This document shows, one piece after another, positions 37,219 to 44,038 of a stretch of 64,000 bases of DNA. This stretch comes from a bacterium HR30. GTDB lineage: Bacteria > Desulfobacterota > Binatia > HRBIN30. Each line of letters begins with the position of its first letter. Position 1 is the stretch's first letter. The notes below the pieces were generated by a model, which was given only the letters and a program-made list of their open reading frames with translations, did not search any database and was not told the origin of the DNA. Position numbers and translations under genes: made by a program. The stretch spans positions 192 through 64,191 of the forward strand of contig BEIG01000001.1 of the NCBI GenBank assembly GCA_002898795.1. The letters run 5' to 3'.

Positions 37219-39030
37219 TCAGGCAACGGTTACCGACTTCGCCAGCGACCTAGGCTTGTCTACGTTTCGCTTCAATGCGGTGGCGGTAAAGTACGCGAGC
37301 AACTGAGCGCCAACCAACGGCAAGAGGGGGGCTGTGATCGCGTGGGCAGGCGGAAACAAAATGATTTCGTCGAACAGCCCTGGCGCCGGATCGAAGGCAA
37401 AGCCAATGACAAAACCGCCCCGTGCCCGCACCTCTTCGACACACGACACGGTCAGGGTGTAGAGTTCTCCACTCTCTCGCGGGGGCACGAACACGAGTGT
37501 GTACAAATTCTCGTCGACAAGCGAAAGTGTGCCATGTTTGAGGAACCCGCCCGGCATACCCTCCACGTGCAAGTACGTCACCTCTTTCATCTTCAAGGCG
37601 GACTCGAGGGCGATTGGGTAGTAGATACCGCGTCCCAGAAACAACCAGTTGTGCATGTGTGCATGCCGGTAAGCAGCGGCACGAATTAGCCCTGAGCGTT
37701 CGTTCAGCAGGGTTTCGATTTCTCCGGGCAAGCGATGGAGGGCATCGCAAGCCGCTTCTTGCGAGCCCCGACTCAGTTTGCCCCGCACAACGCCAAGCTC
37801 GATTGCCAGCCGGGTCAACAGCACCATTTGCGCTAAAGCTGCCTTGGTGCTGACGACGCACACCTCGGGCCCCGATCCCTGCAAGAGGACGTGATCCACC
37901 AACCGGGCAATCGAGGAGCCGACCACGTTCACGATGGCGGCGGTTTTCGCACCCCGTTCCTTCGCGTGGCGCAAGCTCATCAAGGTATCGTACGTTTCGC
38001 CCGACTGGGAAATCGCGAGCACTACGGTATTAGGGTCGCTTTTGTCCAAGTATCGGAACTCGTCGGAACTCACCGGAAGCACATCGACGTCAGCCAGCTC
38101 CGCGAACAGATACTGCCCGTACAGCGCGACATAGTAGGTGGTACCCACGCCGATCAGGTAAATGCGGCGAGCCTCGGCCATCGCCTGCACCAGGGCGAGA
38201 ATGGCACTATTTTCGATGGCCAGAGCGGCCCGTGCTGCCTGGGGCTGCTCGTGAATTTCTTTGAGCATGAAATGCGGGTAACCCCCTTTTCGGGAGAGCT
38301 CCGAGTCCCAAGGGATCACCATGACTGGTTTTTCGACCACCTCGCCATCGCGCACGCGTTTGATGGCGTAACTATCTTTGGACACGATTCCGTACTCCCC
38401 GTCATCGAGGATCACGGCATTTTTCGTGTATTCGATGAAAGCGTTGAAGTCAGAGCCAACGTAGTTGGCATCCGTGCCCACACCAATGATCAGGGGGCTT
38501 TCCTGCCGCGCGCAATAAATTCGATCGGAGTCGTGCACCGAAATCATCGCCAAGGCGTAACTTCCTTCGAGCTCGCGGAGCGTGGCGACCCAAGCTGCCT
38601 CCACGTTGCCTGTTCGCCGGAAGTGATCCTCCACTAAATGGGCGATGGTTTCCGTGTCGGTTTCCGAACGAAAGCGATGCCCCGCTTGCTGCAGGCGTTC
38701 GCGCAACGCGCGGTAATTCGCGATAATGCCATTGTGAACCACGGCAAAGGCGCCGTCGCAGCTCACGTGCGGGTGAGCATTTTCCCGGGTTACCTTACCG
38801 TGTGTGGCCCACCGGGTATGGGCAATGCCCACATGGGCTTCGAGGTTCCGCAGGTTGGCACGGCTATCCACCTCGTCTACCGTGCCCACATCCTTGCGCA
38901 CCTCGATATGCCGATTCTCGACAAAGGCAACGCCGCAGGAATCGTAACCGCGGTATTCGAGCTGGTGCACGCCCTCGTACAAGCGATCGTGGATGGGGTG
39001 AAAACTTGCAACCCCGCTAATGCCGCACAT
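37219..39030 (-). CDS. glmS: Glutamine--fructose-6-phosphate aminotransferase
   Basis: N-terminal MCGISGV (Ntn Cys), two SIS domains, and a C-terminal ...VE-like tail. ATG at 39028-39030. Confidence 0.95.
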   Translation of the reverse strand: MCGISGVASFHPIHDRLYEGVHQLEYRGYDSCGVAFVENRHIEVRKDVGTVDEVDSRANLRNLEAHVGIAHTRWATHGKVTRENAHPHVSCDGAFAVVHNGIIANYRALRERLQQAGHRFRSETDTETIAHLVEDHFRRTGNVEAAWVATLRELEGSYALAMISVHDSDRIYCARQESPLIIGVGTDANYVGSDFNAFIEYTKNAVILDDGEYGIVSKDSYAIKRVRDGEVVEKPVMVIPWDSELSRKGGYPHFMLKEIHEQPQAARAALAIENSAILALVQAMAEARRIYLIGVGTTYYVALYGQYLFAELADVDVLPVSSDEFRYLDKSDPNTVVLAISQSGETYDTLMSLRHAKERGAKTAAIVNVVGSSIARLVDHVLLQGSGPEVCVVSTKAALAQMVLLTRLAIELGVVRGKLSRGSQEAACDALHRLPGEIETLLNERSGLIRAAAYRHAHMHNWLFLGRGIYYPIALESALKMKEVTYLHVEGMPGGFLKHGTLSLVDENLYTLVFVPPRESGELYTLTVSCVEEVRARGGFVIGFAFDPAPGLFDEIILFPPAHAITAPLLPLVGAQLLAYFTATALKRNVDKPRSLAKSVTVA

Positions 39031-39034
39031 AACG

Positions 39035-40243
39035 CTACTCCGCTCGGGGCACCGTGGTGTGATGCTCGATGACGGCGTCCGCCTCGACGATCGTTCCGGC
39101 TGCAAGCGTGTTGCCAGCCCCGATTTTTGCACGATCACCAATGAAGGACCCGAGCTTCTTCAGCCCTGAATCAACCTTGGAGCCACGAATGTTCAAGGCA
39201 ATCGGTTGGCGGTCCAACGTCTCGTTCACCGTCATGGTTCCCGAACCGATATCCACCTCTTCACCGACCACGCTATCGCCAATGAACGAAAGCCGACCGA
39301 TCCGGGCTCGTCCAAAAACCACGCAATTTTTCAGTTCCACTCCGTAGCCCACGATGGAACCAGGGCCCAACGACGAGTAACTCCGAACGAGCACATTGTT
39401 GCCAACGTAACAATCGCGGCCAATGTAACAGGGACCAGCCAGCACGGCCCCTGCGCGGATGGTCGATCCGGCTTCGACGCGAACCGGTCCGACGATGGTC
39501 ACGTTGTTGTCCAGTTTCGCTTCCCGCGAGATGCGCGCCTCTTCCCACGTATCCATGACCAGCCGGTTCGCCGCGAGCACGTCCCATGGGTATTCTACGT
39601 CGATCCAACCCTCCTCCCAAATCGACGCGTGCACGCCCACGGTGGTGGTCAACCGGTCGAACACTCGCTCCATGTCCCGGCCCGCCTCCTCCACCCACGA
39701 AAACAACTCCGTGGGCAGCACGAAGAACCCGGACAACACGTAGTTACCCAACCCTGGGGTCTGCGGCTTTTCGATGATTTTCGTAATGCGTGTGCCGCTC
39801 AAATATACGTTACCGTACCGGCCCGTTGGTGGCCCTGGCAGACACACGCCGGCAATCGGGCTCTTGAACGTGTTGAACGACTGAAGGAGTTGGAGAAACG
39901 GGTTGCTAGAAGTAACCACGTCCCCGTACACCAGAACGAAGTATTCCGCCGGCGTGAATTTGCTGCGCGCGCGCAAAATCGCATCGGCAATACCCTGAGC
40001 GCCTTCCTGGCGCACGTAAGTCAAATTCAAGCCCAAGCTAGAACCATCACCGAAGGTGTTCTCCACCACGTGGCCATGCTGGCCGACAACGATGGCGATG
40101 TCGGTAATCCCTGCTTCCCGTAGGTGCTGGAGCGTGCGGCGCAAGAGCGAGCCACCGGCCACAACCGTCATGGCCTTCGGGCGGGTGGCCGAAAACGGCA
40201 CTAGGGTACGCCCCGCACCACCAGTCAAAACTAGAGCCTTCAT
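39035..40243 (-). CDS. Bifunctional sugar-1-phosphate nucleotidylyltransferase / left-handed beta-helix acyltransferase (GlmU-like, archaeal/Thermus type)
   Basis: MKALVLTGGAGRTL NTP-transferase motif and C-terminal hexapeptide repeats. Lies immediately upstream of glmS. Confidence 0.8.
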   Translation of the reverse strand: MKALVLTGGAGRTLVPFSATRPKAMTVVAGGSLLRRTLQHLREAGITDIAIVVGQHGHVVENTFGDGSSLGLNLTYVRQEGAQGIADAILRARSKFTPAEYFVLVYGDVVTSSNPFLQLLQSFNTFKSPIAGVCLPGPPTGRYGNVYLSGTRITKIIEKPQTPGLGNYVLSGFFVLPTELFSWVEEAGRDMERVFDRLTTTVGVHASIWEEGWIDVEYPWDVLAANRLVMDTWEEARISREAKLDNNVTIVGPVRVEAGSTIRAGAVLAGPCYIGRDCYVGNNVLVRSYSSLGPGSIVGYGVELKNCVVFGRARIGRLSFIGDSVVGEEVDIGSGTMTVNETLDRQPIALNIRGSKVDSGLKKLGSFIGDRAKIGAGNTLAAGTIVEADAVIEHHTTVPRAE

Positions 40244-40383: not shown

Positions 40384-40818
40384 TTGCCCATGAAGTCACG
40401 GGGCATGGGAACTTACTGGCTAAAAGCTTTGCTGTTCACCACCACCCTTCTTGCACCCGTTGGTTGCGTTGGGTGGGAACAAACTCGGGTTCGTAAGAAC
40501 CCCGTCCTTCCCGACGAATACATCATCGAAAAACACGGCGTCCGGCAGGGCACGGTTCGCCGCAATCCCGTCTTTCGCGACCAGTGGGACGTGTACGACA
40601 ACACCGGGCGGCGGCTGGAATCGATTCGCCCCAACCCTGTCTTCAAAGACGAATTCGACATTTACTCGCCTTCAGGCAGGCGAGAAATGACGATCCGGAA
40701 GAGTCCGGTTTTGAAGGACGAATTCGACGTTTTAGACACCACCGGCCGCCGCACTCACCGGGTACGGCCAGACCCAGTACTTCCCGACGAGTGGAAAATC
40801 GAAGGTTACGACCCGTAA
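40384..40818 (+). CDS. Lipoprotein with five tandem ~22-aa repeats
   Basis: Lipobox LLAPVGC. Repeat consensus (V/I)R-x-NPV(L/F)-x-DE(Y/F/W)-x-(I/V)...GRR occurs 5 times. Confidence 0.6.
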   Translation: MPMKSRGMGTYWLKALLFTTTLLAPVGCVGWEQTRVRKNPVLPDEYIIEKHGVRQGTVRRNPVFRDQWDVYDNTGRRLESIRPNPVFKDEFDIYSPSGRREMTIRKSPVLKDEFDVLDTTGRRTHRVRPDPVLPDEWKIEGYDP

Positions 40819-41129
40819 CCTCGACACAACCGCTTGACTCCGCAACCATTTTGGTCCCGCACCGCGACCACGGAATAAAATGCGACTTCATTCGCGGCCG
40901 CCCGGCGAAGAGAACTGGGCCGATCGTGGCCAACAGCGGGCCGCGGAAGCAGCCGCCCACGTGGGTCACGCGTCGTCATCGCGAAAGAACTTGCTCACAC
41001 GCGCTTGCAGCCACCGCAGGCTCGGTCTTTACGGGAGAAGTGACAAAGCACCCAGTGAGATAGCGCCGCGCGCCTTAGCGGCTGAACCGCTCGAGGCTGG
41101 ACTACCGGAATCCGCCGCGCCGTGCCGCG

Positions 41130-41396
41130 TCAGATGGCCCGACCAAGTCCGGCTGCGCGAAGGACCGCCTCGTCCGGACCGCGGCCCGCGCAGCAGTCGG
41201 CAAGCTTGCCATCCATTACCACCGCGGGAACCGAGCGGACGCCCAGGCTTTTCGCCCGCTTGGCAACGGTCGGCTCGTTCATGTCGAGGATGCTCACCTC
41301 ACAGGACGGGCATGCGATGCGCTTGACCAGTTGAACCGTGTCCTCGCAGGCGGGGCAGCCCGCGCTAAACACCTCGATCTTCCTCTTCATCGCCAT
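41130..41396 (-). CDS. Small thioredoxin-fold protein with CPAC active site and C-terminal vicinal Cys pair
   Basis: KIEVFSAGCPACEDTVQLVKRI...VPAVVMDGKLADCCAG. ATG at 41394-41396. Confidence 0.65.
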   Translation of the reverse strand: MAMKRKIEVFSAGCPACEDTVQLVKRIACPSCEVSILDMNEPTVAKRAKSLGVRSVPAVVMDGKLADCCAGRGPDEAVLRAAGLGRAI

Positions 41397-41409
41397 GCTG
41401 AACCTCCTT

Positions 41410-42174
41410 CTACCGTGCGTTCTGGGTGTCCATCGCCGACTCCTGCGAAACGCACGTAGGGCAGGAGACGACGCTTTCTTTCCCTTTGGGCCACGCGTTC
41501 CACACCGACGCGCCAACGAGCAGTGCGATTCCGCCGTACATCGCAGCGTCGGACTCCAAGACAAACTTACCGAGCAACACGACAACGACCGCCACGAGCC
41601 CCGCGGCAAGTGGACCGTATCCCCAGCGGGTTCGCGCGCGGAACGCCAGCGCACCCACGGCCAGAAGCAGGAACGCTACCGTGAGCGCGAACAGGTACGC
41701 CGTGTCCAGCAGGAACCCCAGCCCCACCGAGCTGAGCAGGCCCGCATACGCTGGCCAGCATGCGGGGCACGCAAGCTTAGGGAGAAATGCGAACGCGATC
41801 CCTGGCGCGGTCGCTAGAGAACTTTGCCATCCCGAAGACAAGGGCTTGCTGATCGGCGATTGGCTGCTGGCGGCACGCAAGGCCTGTGCAATCTGTTCGA
41901 CGGTCGGAACGCCCTGGAGCAAACCGGAACCGCTGCGATACAAACGGCAACTCGAATATCCTGCGCCGGGTGCGACCCCCGCGACATCGCGCCCATCCAC
42001 AAGGATGGTTGGAGACCCGTATCCACGGGCGTAGGCCGGGCACTCCGGTGACTTCTGCTCCCACTCCGTCCACGAAGGTTGAAGCCCGACCAGGCGGAAA
42101 GCCTCGAGGAGCACCTTCCTGGCAGCGTCGACGTTCGGACAAACCTTGTCGTACACCAGCTCGACACGAGTCAT
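41410..42174 (-). CDS. Glutaredoxin-like N-terminal domain fused to a polytopic membrane domain with CPAC and SCPTC motifs
   Basis: VELVYDKVCPNV...SPTILVDGRDVAG is a Grx-like fold. The TM region carries LACPACWPAYAGLL, and the C-terminus carries SCPTC. ATGA overlap with the upstream regulator. Confidence 0.6.
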   Translation of the reverse strand: MTRVELVYDKVCPNVDAARKVLLEAFRLVGLQPSWTEWEQKSPECPAYARGYGSPTILVDGRDVAGVAPGAGYSSCRLYRSGSGLLQGVPTVEQIAQALRAASSQSPISKPLSSGWQSSLATAPGIAFAFLPKLACPACWPAYAGLLSSVGLGFLLDTAYLFALTVAFLLLAVGALAFRARTRWGYGPLAAGLVAVVVVLLGKFVLESDAAMYGGIALLVGASVWNAWPKGKESVVSCPTCVSQESAMDTQNAR

Positions 42175-42584
42175 GATACGTCTTCCTCCGAACCCATGGC
42201 CTCCAGAATCGGGCACTGGCTCACTGGCCCGCTACCCGAGCATTCGCCGATGAGCTTGGTCAGGGCCCTCCGCATCGCCTGAAGCGTTCGGACCTTGTCG
42301 TCGATGTGCTTCACCTTGGCCTTCGCCCGCTCACGAATTTCGCCACATCGGGTTCGAGGCGTGGCACGAAGTGCAAGAAGCTCCTTGATCTCCTTCAGCG
42401 TAAACCCCAGCTCCTGCGCCCGCTTGATGAAGCGCACCCGCAGCACGGCCTCCGCTGGATAAGACCGGTAATTCGACCCCGTGCGAGGCGGCCGGGGCAA
42501 AAGTCCCCGGCGTTCGTAGTAGTAAACCGTTTGCACCTTCACGCCCGCTTGCTTGGCAACTTCACCAATCTTGAGACCTCGCAT
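42171..42584 (-). CDS. MerR-family transcriptional regulator with MerR-type (Hg-binding-like) Cys spacing
   Basis: N-terminal HTH IGEVAKQAGVKVQTVYYYERRGLL. Cys80, Cys115 and Cys124 compare with MerR C82/C117/C126. Confidence 0.85.
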   Translation of the reverse strand: MRGLKIGEVAKQAGVKVQTVYYYERRGLLPRPPRTGSNYRSYPAEAVLRVRFIKRAQELGFTLKEIKELLALRATPRTRCGEIRERAKAKVKHIDDKVRTLQAMRRALTKLIGECSGSGPVSQCPILEAMGSEEDVS

Positions 42585-42594
42585 CGCCGATCTC

Positions 42595-42634
42595 CTGCAT
42601 GCAGTCTACAGCCTGTGCTTAGGTATAGGGTCAA
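42595..42634 (-). promoter_or_regulatory. Putative MerR-type promoter with a 10-bp perfect palindrome
   Basis: On the minus strand: TTGACC, a 19-bp spacer, TAGACT, then palindrome CTGCATGCAG (42595-42604), then AGGAGA RBS and the ATG. Confidence 0.35.
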
Positions 42635-42860
42635 GCCCTTCGACTCCTTTCTCGAAGAACGACGTAGAACTCACGAAAACCTCCAACCGCTTCCGCACAA
42701 CAACAGGTTCGCCCGGCAGTTGACTCTGTGGTCCGCTGCCGAACCGCAGGCTAGGCAGCGGTACCAATCAAGCGTCGTGTGACACCGCTGACTATGGCGA
42801 AAGCAAGGGCTTTCCGCCGCTCCTGCCACGTTTTCAGACCAAGATCGCTCCTGAAAAGCG

Positions 42861-43322
42861 GTGCTGATCGAAAGATACAACGGGGAAAGGAACGCACCAG
42901 GCTCGGAGCACCGGCGTGTTGGTCGCTACATCATCGCGGCGCGCAAGCGCGGCGTCCAATTCGAAGGCCTGGCTGAGAGTCCCAGCGTGCTGGTTTCCAG
43001 GCTGTTCGCCAAAGGCCAGCGGGTCCTTGAGGAAAACGGCATCGTCTACGTGGAGATTGCCTCCCTGCTGAATGGATCGCCGTGCGACGACACCACCACT
43101 CGTTTGGCGAGGCATAACCCCAAATTGCGGGCCCGGCTCCGCTACACCCGCGACATCTCTACCCGCGTCGCACCACGCCCCCGCGGGTCCATGAGAAGAT
43201 CGGGCGTTTGGCGCTCCAACCGTGATCGCATCCCACCGAGCGCGGGCATGAGCTCCTGCAATCGCTCTTATCTCCGTGGGATACGGCATCCGCAAAACTC
43301 TCTCGTGGCCGCTCTTCCATGA
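42861..43322 (+). CDS. Doubtful ORF in a 1.4-kb region without recognisable genes
   Basis: GC3 is moderately high, but there is no homology and no RBS. An equally long ORF overlaps it on the other strand. Confidence 0.15.
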   Translation: MLIERYNGERNAPGSEHRRVGRYIIAARKRGVQFEGLAESPSVLVSRLFAKGQRVLEENGIVYVEIASLLNGSPCDDTTTRLARHNPKLRARLRYTRDISTRVAPRPRGSMRRSGVWRSNRDRIPPSAGMSSCNRSYLRGIRHPQNSLVAALP

Positions 43323-44038
43323 AGTCCACCTACCGTATCTGGTTTTGAAGATGCGCAACCCCTTCGCTCACCGAGCGCAACCGCAGCATCGAGCGCGGCC
43401 GGTGGACCATCGAGCCCCATCTGCTCCACCGGGGCGGGCCGCCCGACATGGGATTCTCACCTACCTTCATCGGCCAGGAGGACGTCGTCTTCTGCGAGGA
43501 TCGTCCCGGTAGAGCTTCTGCCCACGCGTGCGCGCCGCATCGAAACCTAAAAGCTGGGGGTATCTCAACGACCAGGGCACCTGATGCATCTACTGGGGCG
43601 ACAACCAACAGAACATCGCTGGTGTTGGGATCGGCACGCGGGAGCGCGAGGCGCCAGCCCAGGATCCCTTTCCGCCCGCCCTCAGTGCAATCGTTGGAGG
43701 TCGCGGGGGATCGCAGCACCGACAGCACTCGTGCTGTACGGTCCGCTTCACTCCAGGACGGCAAGGTCTCACGGCCCAGTCCAATTGCCGGCTACCCTGC
43801 CGGTAAAACTAAGCCCAGCGCCAAAACCACTTGTTGACGGTCGAGAAAGCTGCCCGCTCGGACACCCAGGGTTGCGGGAGTTTACCAAGCGAGCGGGGCA
43901 ACCAACTGCGTCCCCCTTGCTTGCTTTCTTTCAACCTCACCCCACGCAACTCAACATACCGTCAATCTTGACTGTTATTGTCCAGCATGGCAGGTAGGGG
44001 TTGTCACGACGACCCACTTTCGAGTGCAGAGGGTGAGT

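Follow-up and report, generated by a model that had tools for sequence, protein, structure and literature searches.

A three-gene operon on the minus strand of a 64,000-nucleotide stretch of contig BEIG01000001.1 from the bacterium HR30 (the whole stretch is hereafter called the window) is very probably a metal-sensing operon of the MerR type, in which a MerC-type cysteine-relay transporter is combined with a dedicated thioredoxin-fold partner. The operon, which is present in many uncultured phyla of bacteria, occupies window positions 42634-41130 and comprises, in the 5' to 3' direction, a promoter/operator and the genes of a regulator (P1), a fusion protein (P2), and a small protein (P3). 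The divalent thiophilic metal sensed is most likely Hg(II), and the cassette probably handles mercury-like metals in a manner not yet studied. Both the identity of the metal and the direction of transport are inferred. As a more specific explanation, which we favor tentatively and place just short of an even chance, the cassette would be an autonomous, horizontally mobile operon for inducible thiol-relay uptake and sequestration of the Hg(II) type that needs no linked merA. The original prediction for this locus had proposed a sequestration or transport module for thiophilic metals (Hg/Cd/Cu) or disulfide stress that lacks merA. A thiophilic-metal module without merA under a MerR-type sensor was retained by the present analysis, whereas Cu(I) proved to be an unlikely effector and disulfide stress was disfavored.

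Organization of the cassette

The elements of the cassette are listed below in window coordinates.

42634-42603, minus strand: promoter/operator of the MerR type with a 20-bp spacer
42584-42171, minus strand: regulator P1, 137 amino acids (aa), GBD24730.1, MerR-family metal sensor with Cys80, Cys115, and Cys124
42174-41410, minus strand: fusion protein P2, 254 aa, GBD24729, thioredoxin-fold domain, MerC domain, and Cys tail
41863-42174, minus strand: P2 residues 1-104, thioredoxin-fold domain, a distant member of the "DF family"
41494-41820, minus strand: P2 residues 119-227, four-helix membrane domain of the MerC family
41410-41493, minus strand: C-terminal tail of P2, residues 228-254 and the stop codon, with the SCPTC pair C238 and C241
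41396-41130, minus strand: P3, 88 aa, GBD24728.1, thioredoxin/glutaredoxin fold with six conserved Cys
40972-41767, no strand assigned: segment missing in sister populations, from the blastn alignment break in loci L084-L086

The TGA stop codon of P1 overlaps the ATG of P2 (ATGA at 42174-42171), which confirmed the earlier description of the regulator as co-directional and coupled to its target. The gap between P2 and P3 is 13 nt, and an AAGGAGG ribosome-binding site lies ahead of P3. In the database, P1 of the bacterium HR30 is named "Mercuric resistance operon regulatory protein," while P2 and P3 are "hypothetical."

Regulator P1 and its promoter

P1 was matched by the Pfam families MerR_1 (73.2 bits), MerR-DNA-bind (71.3 bits), and MerR (58.6 bits). 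The best NCBIfam model was TIGR02051, the MerR equivalog, with 134.9 bits, which is under its cutoff of 150.85; lower scores were obtained with the models of CueR (116 bits), CadR/PbrR (113), ZntR (105-110), SoxR (63.6), and NmlR (34.7). TIGR02051 was also the top model for all 10 orthologues tested from other phyla, with scores of 135.6-148.5 bits, each just under the cutoff. The regulator therefore did not group with the SoxR or BmrR types, an outcome that the original prediction had named as contrary to its proposal. The profile searches suggested there did yield MerR as the best model of the regulator, but its cutoff was missed, and they identified MerC instead of MerT in P2. In a profile search of the PDB, P1 was closest to the Hg-bound Bacillus MerR (4ua1, 94.8 bits), and Tn501 MerR (5crl), PbrR (5gpe), and CadR (6jgv) scored about 82 bits each. 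Judging from the NCBIfam and PDB scores, P1 is a sister clade of the characterized MerRs, clearly of the metal-sensing type and not certified as MerR by the curated cutoff.

The three cysteines to which attention had been drawn because of their MerR-like spacing, Cys80, Cys115, and Cys124, paired with the three Hg-binding cysteines of 5crl and 4ua1 in a HMMER alignment and were conserved in 74 of 74 orthologues. In the structures of CueR, ZntR, and MerR, the position of Cys80 marks the sensors of divalent metals, and CueR has Ser there. Since this position is an invariant Cys in P1 and its orthologues, Cu(I) is unlikely to be the effector.

The -35 element TTGACC (42634-42629) and the -10 element TAGACT (42608-42603) are located as predicted earlier, but the spacer is 20 bp, not 19 bp. 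The window contains an imperfect dyad of the 7-4-7 form, CCTATAC-CTAA-GCACAGG, at 42629-42612. Its half-sites are degenerate, with agreement between CCTATAC and CCTGTGC at 5 of 7 positions; the perfect CCTATAC-N4-GTATAGG occurs in the nearest relatives. The 52 loci with a recognizable dyad gave the consensus TTGAC(T/C)C(T/C)(G/A)TA(C/G)-N4-GTAC(A/G)GG..TAnnnT, in which the -10 element lies exactly 20 bp past the -35 element and keeps its first T in 45 of 52 loci, while the A and the last T are found in all 52. Many orthologous loci carry the half-sites CCGTAC-N4-GTACGG; CCGTAC and GTACGG are also the half-sites of the Tn501 merO, and their distance from the -35 element corresponds. The consensus pattern matched the window once, at 42634-42603 with one mismatch, and matched none of 100 shuffled sequences, while a promoter scan with the standard 16-18-bp spacer found no promoter at the cassette. 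These two results fit a promoter that needs DNA distortion of the MerR type to fire. On the evidence of sequence and comparison, P1 autoregulates a single transcript encoding P1, P2, and P3.

The palindrome CTGCATGCAG noted earlier downstream of the -10 element is indeed present (42604-42595, minus strand), where it shares positions with the last part of the -10 element and with the ribosome-binding site AGGAG (42596-42592). A comparison of 73 upstream regions revealed it elsewhere only in L001, the closest locus. As it is not conserved, it was rejected as a second operator and probably does not function as an independent element.

The fusion protein P2

P2 had been described as a glutaredoxin-like domain fused to a membrane domain with CPAC in a transmembrane helix and a C-terminal SCPTC. 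The CPAC (residues 136-139), the SCPTC (residues 237-241), and the thioredoxin fold of the N-terminal domain were all recovered; the N-terminal domain, however, contains no CxxC, and the membrane domain belongs to MerC, not to MerT. Residues 125-226 matched Pfam MerC (PF03203) over profile positions 4-106 of 108 with 30.9 bits (gathering threshold 27.6), and a MerC domain is precomputed in nearly all P2 homologues. In a BLASTP comparison with Tn21 MerC, the identity was 32% over 120 aa (E 9e-8), and CPAC was aligned to CAAC. The motif LACPACWPAY with C136 and C139 in the first transmembrane helix (TM1) is invariant. AlphaFold2 predicted four membrane helices with a kink at CPAC, and the Arg-rich loop between TM2 and TM3, together with the Lys-rich tail, fits an N-in/C-in topology, the one reported for MerC. 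A PDB profile search with the P2 family gave no match.

The N-terminal domain (residues 1-104) was modeled by AlphaFold2 as beta-alpha-beta-alpha-beta-beta-alpha with a predicted local distance difference test score (pLDDT) of about 90. It contains the conserved C12 (CPN, CPNV) and C76 (CRLY) and a GSPT loop of the cis-Pro type. No Pfam family matched the domain, and Foldseek returned thioredoxins, glutaredoxins, and a mycoredoxin only, without an informative specific relative. Residues 4-98 aligned to positions 1-96 of the NF049942 profile with 42.1 bits, below the cutoff of 70. The tail with SCPTC is predicted to be cytoplasmic and disordered (pLDDT <50). With respect to cysteine conservation, C12, C76, C136, C139, and C241 are invariant in P2, C238 is found in at least 90% of the sequences (20 sequences compared), and C45 is specific to the window.

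The small protein P3

For P3, the length of 88 aa, the CPAC (residues 14-17), and the vicinal CC (68-69) within ADCCAG (66-71) agreed with the original prediction, which had overlooked a second CxxC, CPSC at residues 29-32. The protein has six Cys in total, conserved in 67-68 of 68 sequences, and with 63-85% identity across phyla it is the most conserved of the three proteins. With this result and the invariance of the P1 triad, a loss of the cysteines in orthologues, the other outcome named in advance as contrary, was not observed. P3 matched the Pfam families Thioredoxin_3 (PF13192; 38.6 bits, gathering threshold 24.8) and Glutaredoxin (25.5 bits), and scored 27.2 bits with TIGR00412, below the cutoff of 62. 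The AlphaFold2 model (pLDDT 79) has a thioredoxin fold with a helix at residues 15-27 that follows C14xxC17. The top Foldseek matches were generic thioredoxin and glutaredoxin folds with no informative specific relative, and the best PDB match by sequence was 2k8s, the uncharacterized NE0084 of N. europaea (E 7e-6).

By homology with glutaredoxins, the vicinal CC follows beta-4, where their GG-x-DD glutathione-binding loop sits, and would lie beside the CPAC active site. Because of this placement, CPAC and CC may form one site with three or four thiolates. No signal peptides were present in P3 and the N-terminal domain of P2, and the charge distribution predicted both to be cytoplasmic.

Distribution and modular relatives

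More than 2000 homologues with the full-length architecture of P2 were found at E<=1e-3 in a 90%-clustered collection. An exhaustive HMMER scan at the level of 50% identity gave about 200 clusters that reached E<=1e-30. The loci were scanned with one genome per species, which gave 80 loci, all from metagenome-assembled genomes (MAGs). They represent at least 14 phyla; the lineages are Gemmatimonadota, Acidobacteriota, Planctomycetota, Myxococcota, Nitrospirota, Verrucomicrobiota, Spirochaetota, Armatimonadota, Omnitrophota, Binatia, Latescibacteria, Glassbacteria, and a number of classes of proteobacteria. In about 65 of the 80 loci, the three genes are on one strand in the order P1-P2-P3; six have the order P2-P3-P1, and the rest were mostly cut by contig ends. 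In 66 of 68 loci, the genes of P1 and P2 overlap or are separated by no more than 8 nt; between P2 and P3, the median gap is 10.5 nt.

Parts of the cassette also occur separately. Stand-alone proteins of the DF type, about 100-110 aa long, exist, and in L087 such a gene directly follows a MerR gene and is located beside a gene for a heavy-metal-binding-domain protein. In a 177-aa metagenomic protein (P0300), a DF domain is fused to a P3-like thioredoxin in which the ADCC motif is kept; this fusion provides an independent link between the two thioredoxin-fold modules. Relatives consisting of MerC only, with 57-62% identity, were found as well. P0311 (352 aa) and P0401 (345 aa) have about 100 additional residues before the DF-MerC part, and no Pfam family matched this extension.

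A tblastn search of plasmids recovered no full-length P2, only stand-alone homologues of its N-terminal domain (about 100 aa), which are located on actinobacterial metal-resistance plasmids (L082, NZ_CP039433.1; L083, NZ_CP084562.1). RefSeq annotates these plasmid homologues inconsistently, as "alkylmercury lyase" or as "thioredoxin family protein." The one stand-alone DF protein that was scanned, P0249, matched no Pfam family and had no MerB domain, whereas the true MerB of L066 matched Pfam MerB. The label "alkylmercury lyase" (MerB) was consequently not taken as evidence, and the lyase name of the stand-alone DF proteins looks like an annotation error.

No selenocysteine form was seen among the 80 loci, and no locus had an in-frame stop at a conserved Cys. 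For the 135-aa truncated P2 (P0241), a selenocysteine/UGA stop at the Cys of CPAC was considered and rejected, as the truncation corresponds to the 796-bp deletion described below.

Linkage to merA and genomic neighborhood

The absence of a mercuric reductase, stated in the original prediction, held throughout the 64-kb window, where no MerA-type motif (C-x-N-x-G-C-x-P-[ST]-K) was found in any frame. The motif was present within ±4 kb in only two of the 80 loci, L066 and L027. In L066, a Burkholderiales MAG, a canonical merR / merT-merP-merB-merA operon lies directly upstream of the cassette (L066:1-4000); no other locus provides a direct physical link to bona fide mercury genes. Two different MerR-type regulators are encoded about 700 bp apart in L066. 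L027 encodes a disulfide oxidoreductase with the MerA-type motif, which was not assigned further, and this locus lacks P1 and P3.

The neighborhoods of the 80 loci are heterogeneous, and no conserved fourth gene was found among them. The commonest neighbors were RND adaptors (13 loci), TolC-like proteins (9), multicopper oxidases (6), CusA/CzcA-like pumps (6), and CDF transporters (5); others were DUF3179, a methyltransferase, a transporter of the ACR3/SBF type, and an open reading frame (ORF) that looked recombinase-like on inspection. These neighbors indicate that mixed metal-resistance or mobile regions are the usual setting of the cassette. In the window, the G+C content of the cassette (41100-42300) is 0.63-0.65 and that of the flanking housekeeping genes 0.58-0.60, which is consistent with horizontal acquisition.

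In sister populations from three independent sequencing runs (L084-L086; ERR1578618, ERR14790953, and SRR7473445), the flanks are about 97% identical to the window, and a 796-bp segment corresponding to 40972-41767 is gone. The blastn alignments break at window positions 41768 and 40971, with an overlap of about 5 bp at the junction. The deletion removes P2 from CPAC on, all of P3, and about 160 bp downstream, and leaves P1 with a 135-aa thioredoxin-fold stub. P1 and the stub might still be functional, because they resemble the natural pair of MerR and stand-alone DF protein in L087.

Proposed function and alternative explanations

According to the mechanism that we propose, binding of the metal to Cys80/Cys115'/Cys124' would turn the promoter on. 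The MerC domain would pick up Hg(II) from the periplasmic side through the CPAC pair in TM1 and, by thiol exchange, would hand it to the cytoplasmic cysteines of P2, namely, the CxxC of the tail and C12/C76 of the fused domain. The soluble six-Cys P3 would then accept the metal. The end point would be stoichiometric sequestration or buffering in the cytoplasm, stoichiometric binding being suggested as the sink because no reductase is linked. Low-molecular-weight thiols could later receive the metal, as could an unlinked MerA in hosts that have one. The benefit to the cell would be the protection of envelope and cytosolic thiols at low natural concentrations of mercury, and is plausible at nanomolar levels. 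This explanation draws on the identities of the components, the conservation of their cysteines, the operon structure, the mer-like promoter, the P0300 fusion, the L087 and L066 loci, the predicted cytoplasmic location of the thioredoxin folds, and the autonomy of the cassette.

Several points weigh against uptake and sequestration of Hg(II). The main difficulty for any import model comes from mer genetics: cells that express a mercury importer but no MerA become hypersensitive, as is well established, and it is not evident what they would gain from net import and subsequent sequestration. The similarity of P2 to MerC is remote (for NF010318/NF033784, 36.5 and 33.7 bits, with cutoffs of 170 and 140, respectively). 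All the regulators tested fall just under the MerR equivalog cutoff, and in some orthologues the ZntR/CueR models are only about 4-7 bits behind; furthermore, PbrR has the same spacing of cysteines (35 and 9), which makes the triad necessary but not specific for MerR. On account of these scores and of the PbrR spacing, the effector could be Cd, Pb, or Zn. The deletion in the sister populations shows that the cassette is dispensable in this lineage. Finally, literature searches found no published characterization of any member of the cassette.

A cassette of the same architecture in which a sensor like PbrR, CadR, or ZntR responds to Cd(II), Pb(II), or Zn(II) and controls a thiol-relay transporter would account for regulators that stay below the MerR cutoff with ZntR/CueR models some 4-20 bits away, for the nearly equal scores of PbrR (5gpe), CadR (6jgv), and Tn501 MerR, and for the frequent occurrence of the cassettes within Cu, Zn, or Cd resistance islands. 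We consider it improbable, given that MerR was the top model for 11 of 11 regulators, that the best solved relative is the Bacillus MerR, that the half-sites of the operator match those of merO, and that P1 has neither the CC/His of the ZntR type nor a loop of CadR length, while its target belongs to the MerC family. A relay for disulfide reduction similar to CcdA/DsbD, that is, a metal-independent module for thiol/disulfide redox stress, could be read from the two thioredoxin-fold modules, the three CxxC motifs, and the position of one CxxC inside a transmembrane helix. It is very improbable, however, because the sensor has the metal-type triad of cysteines with far lower scores for SoxR and NmlR, the fused domain lacks CxxC, and the membrane domain matches MerC and not the DsbD/CcdA families; with both thioredoxin folds predicted to be cytoplasmic, the relay would have no periplasmic acceptor. 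The metal-type site of the sensor and the predicted cytoplasmic location of the thioredoxin folds, which have no signal peptides, are the reasons for which the disulfide-stress option of the original prediction was disfavored.

Two further alternatives retain mercury or a similar metal and change the fate of the metal. The cassette could be an accessory Hg(II) importer that feeds an unlinked MerA, as MerC does in Tn21, with the fused domain and P3 serving as shuttles similar to NmerA. Such a function agrees with the known role of the MerC family, which is import for reduction (PMC3466566), and with L066, where the cassette immediately adjoins a canonical merRTPBA operon. It is nonetheless unlikely, since 78 of the 80 loci have no MerA-type motif within about 4 kb, nor does the 64-kb window, and since the cassette has its own sensor and promoter and moves as a self-contained three-gene unit among unrelated neighbors. 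Alternatively, P3 could scavenge cytosolic Hg(II), Cd, or Pb and pass it through the fused domain to the MerC-like channel and on to periplasmic or environmental ligands. Export of this kind, a merA-independent resistance, would explain a benefit without a reductase; all the Cys modules that could accept or donate the metal are predicted to be cytoplasmic and tethered to the channel, and efflux genes are frequent neighbors (the RND adaptors, TolC-like proteins, CusA/CzcA-like pumps, and CDF transporters counted above). The main objections are that the cassette has no energy-coupling domain and that a transporter of this kind has no known precedent; in addition, cytoplasmic Cys sites of high coordination would retain the metal instead of releasing it outward. 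The characterized transporters of the Mer superfamily, moreover, are, as far as is known, all importers (PMC3466566). Export thus seems improbable. A broader proposition, which we regard as doubtful, is that self-sufficient, merA-independent tolerance to Hg(II) by a MerR-switched Cys relay, through either sequestration or export, is widespread in uncultured phyla.

Comparison with known systems

The cassette may be regarded as similar to the front half of a mer operon, with a sensor, a membrane Cys relay, and a cytoplasmic Cys acceptor. It shares with the mer operons of Tn21/Tn501 a MerR-type activator with three Hg-binding cysteines at the same spacing, a dyad that is placed between the -35 and -10 elements of a promoter with an overlong spacer and has, in many of the orthologous loci, the half-sites CCGTAC/GTACGG, and a MerC-type protein in which TM1 contains CxxC and the cytoplasmic C terminus a Cys pair. 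In P3, the vicinal CC is also reminiscent of the C-terminal CC of MerA. Unlike Tn21/Tn501, the cassette contains no merA, merP, merT, or merD, its merR is co-transcribed instead of divergent, and the promoter spacer is 20 bp compared with 19 bp. Its MerC carries an N-terminal thioredoxin-fold domain, a six-Cys thioredoxin-fold protein is added, and both the regulator and the MerC domain score below the NCBI equivalog cutoffs. The cassette was not classified as a mer operon because of these sub-cutoff scores and the absence of MerA at the locus.

In the mer operons of Gram-positive bacteria (Bacillus RC607 / Tn MERI1; S. aureus pI258), merR opens the operon and is transcribed together with the structural genes, among them merA, merT, merP, and merB. 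The co-directional regulator, previously presented as a departure from canonical mer operons, is therefore a difference from the Gram-negative Tn21/Tn501 but not from the Gram-positive type. The cassette shares co-transcription with merR first with the latter, and among solved structures the Bacillus MerR (4ua1) comes closest to P1, while merA is again the gene that the cassette lacks.

The transfer from MerT/MerC to NmerA follows the same logic, in that the cytoplasmic cysteines of the transporter pass Hg(II) to a cytoplasmic domain with a Cys pair. In the cassette, however, the acceptor has a thioredoxin fold and is fused to the transporter, whereas NmerA has the HMA fold and is part of the reductase; no catalytic sink follows in the cassette. 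The "DF family (seleno)protein" model NF049942 can be aligned over its full length with the N-terminal domain of P2, which differs in its sub-cutoff score and its fusion to MerC. MTH895/ArsE (TIGR00412) and NE0084 (2k8s) have the same fold and size as P3 and a CxxC at the start of helix 1, to which P3 adds CPSC and CC.

Literature searches found no description of a cassette of MerR, thioredoxin-MerC fusion, and thioredoxin or of the "DF family." Within merA-containing operons, merC is confined to Beta- and Gammaproteobacteria (PMC3466566), and the MerC-domain family of the cassette has a much broader distribution. The marker gene in surveys of mercury resistance among microbes is merA (PMC3466566, PMC8261052), and the cassette, though abundant, would escape such surveys. 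If it responds to Hg(II), it is a marker for a large set of organisms in which mercury is sensed and handled but not reduced, and it offers a natural pair of mercury sensor and bioaccumulation system for biosensing and remediation, as well as a simple three-protein system in which the passage of a metal between Cys pairs across a membrane can be studied. If another metal is the effector, the cassette is an example of the re-use of MerR and MerC parts. A merA-independent relay, if true, would control the intracellular availability of mercury in sediments, groundwater, and hot springs, and would be a third microbial route for mercury beside reduction (MerA) and methylation (HgcAB).

Flanking regions

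On one side, the cassette is flanked by two housekeeping genes, a GlmS-like gene (37219-39141) and a nucleotidyltransferase gene (39035-40243). No tRNA, Rfam RNA, intrinsic terminator, or promoter of standard spacing was found around the cassette. The other flank, about 1.4 kb upstream of the promoter (42640-44000), is gene-poor, with shorter ORFs only, none of them convincing, and tRNA and Rfam RNA were not found in this stretch either. In a sister strain, a 227-aa gene without a Pfam match is called there, and it would run into the mer-type promoter.

An ORF of 144 aa is located at 40384-40818 on the plus strand. The encoded protein has a signal of the lipoprotein type (…LLAPVGC) ahead of about five tandem repeats, each of about 22 aa and with the pattern R-x-NPV(L/F)-x-DE(F/W)D(I/V)…GRR. 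No Pfam family matched it, and it is found beside the cassette in the sister strains as well.

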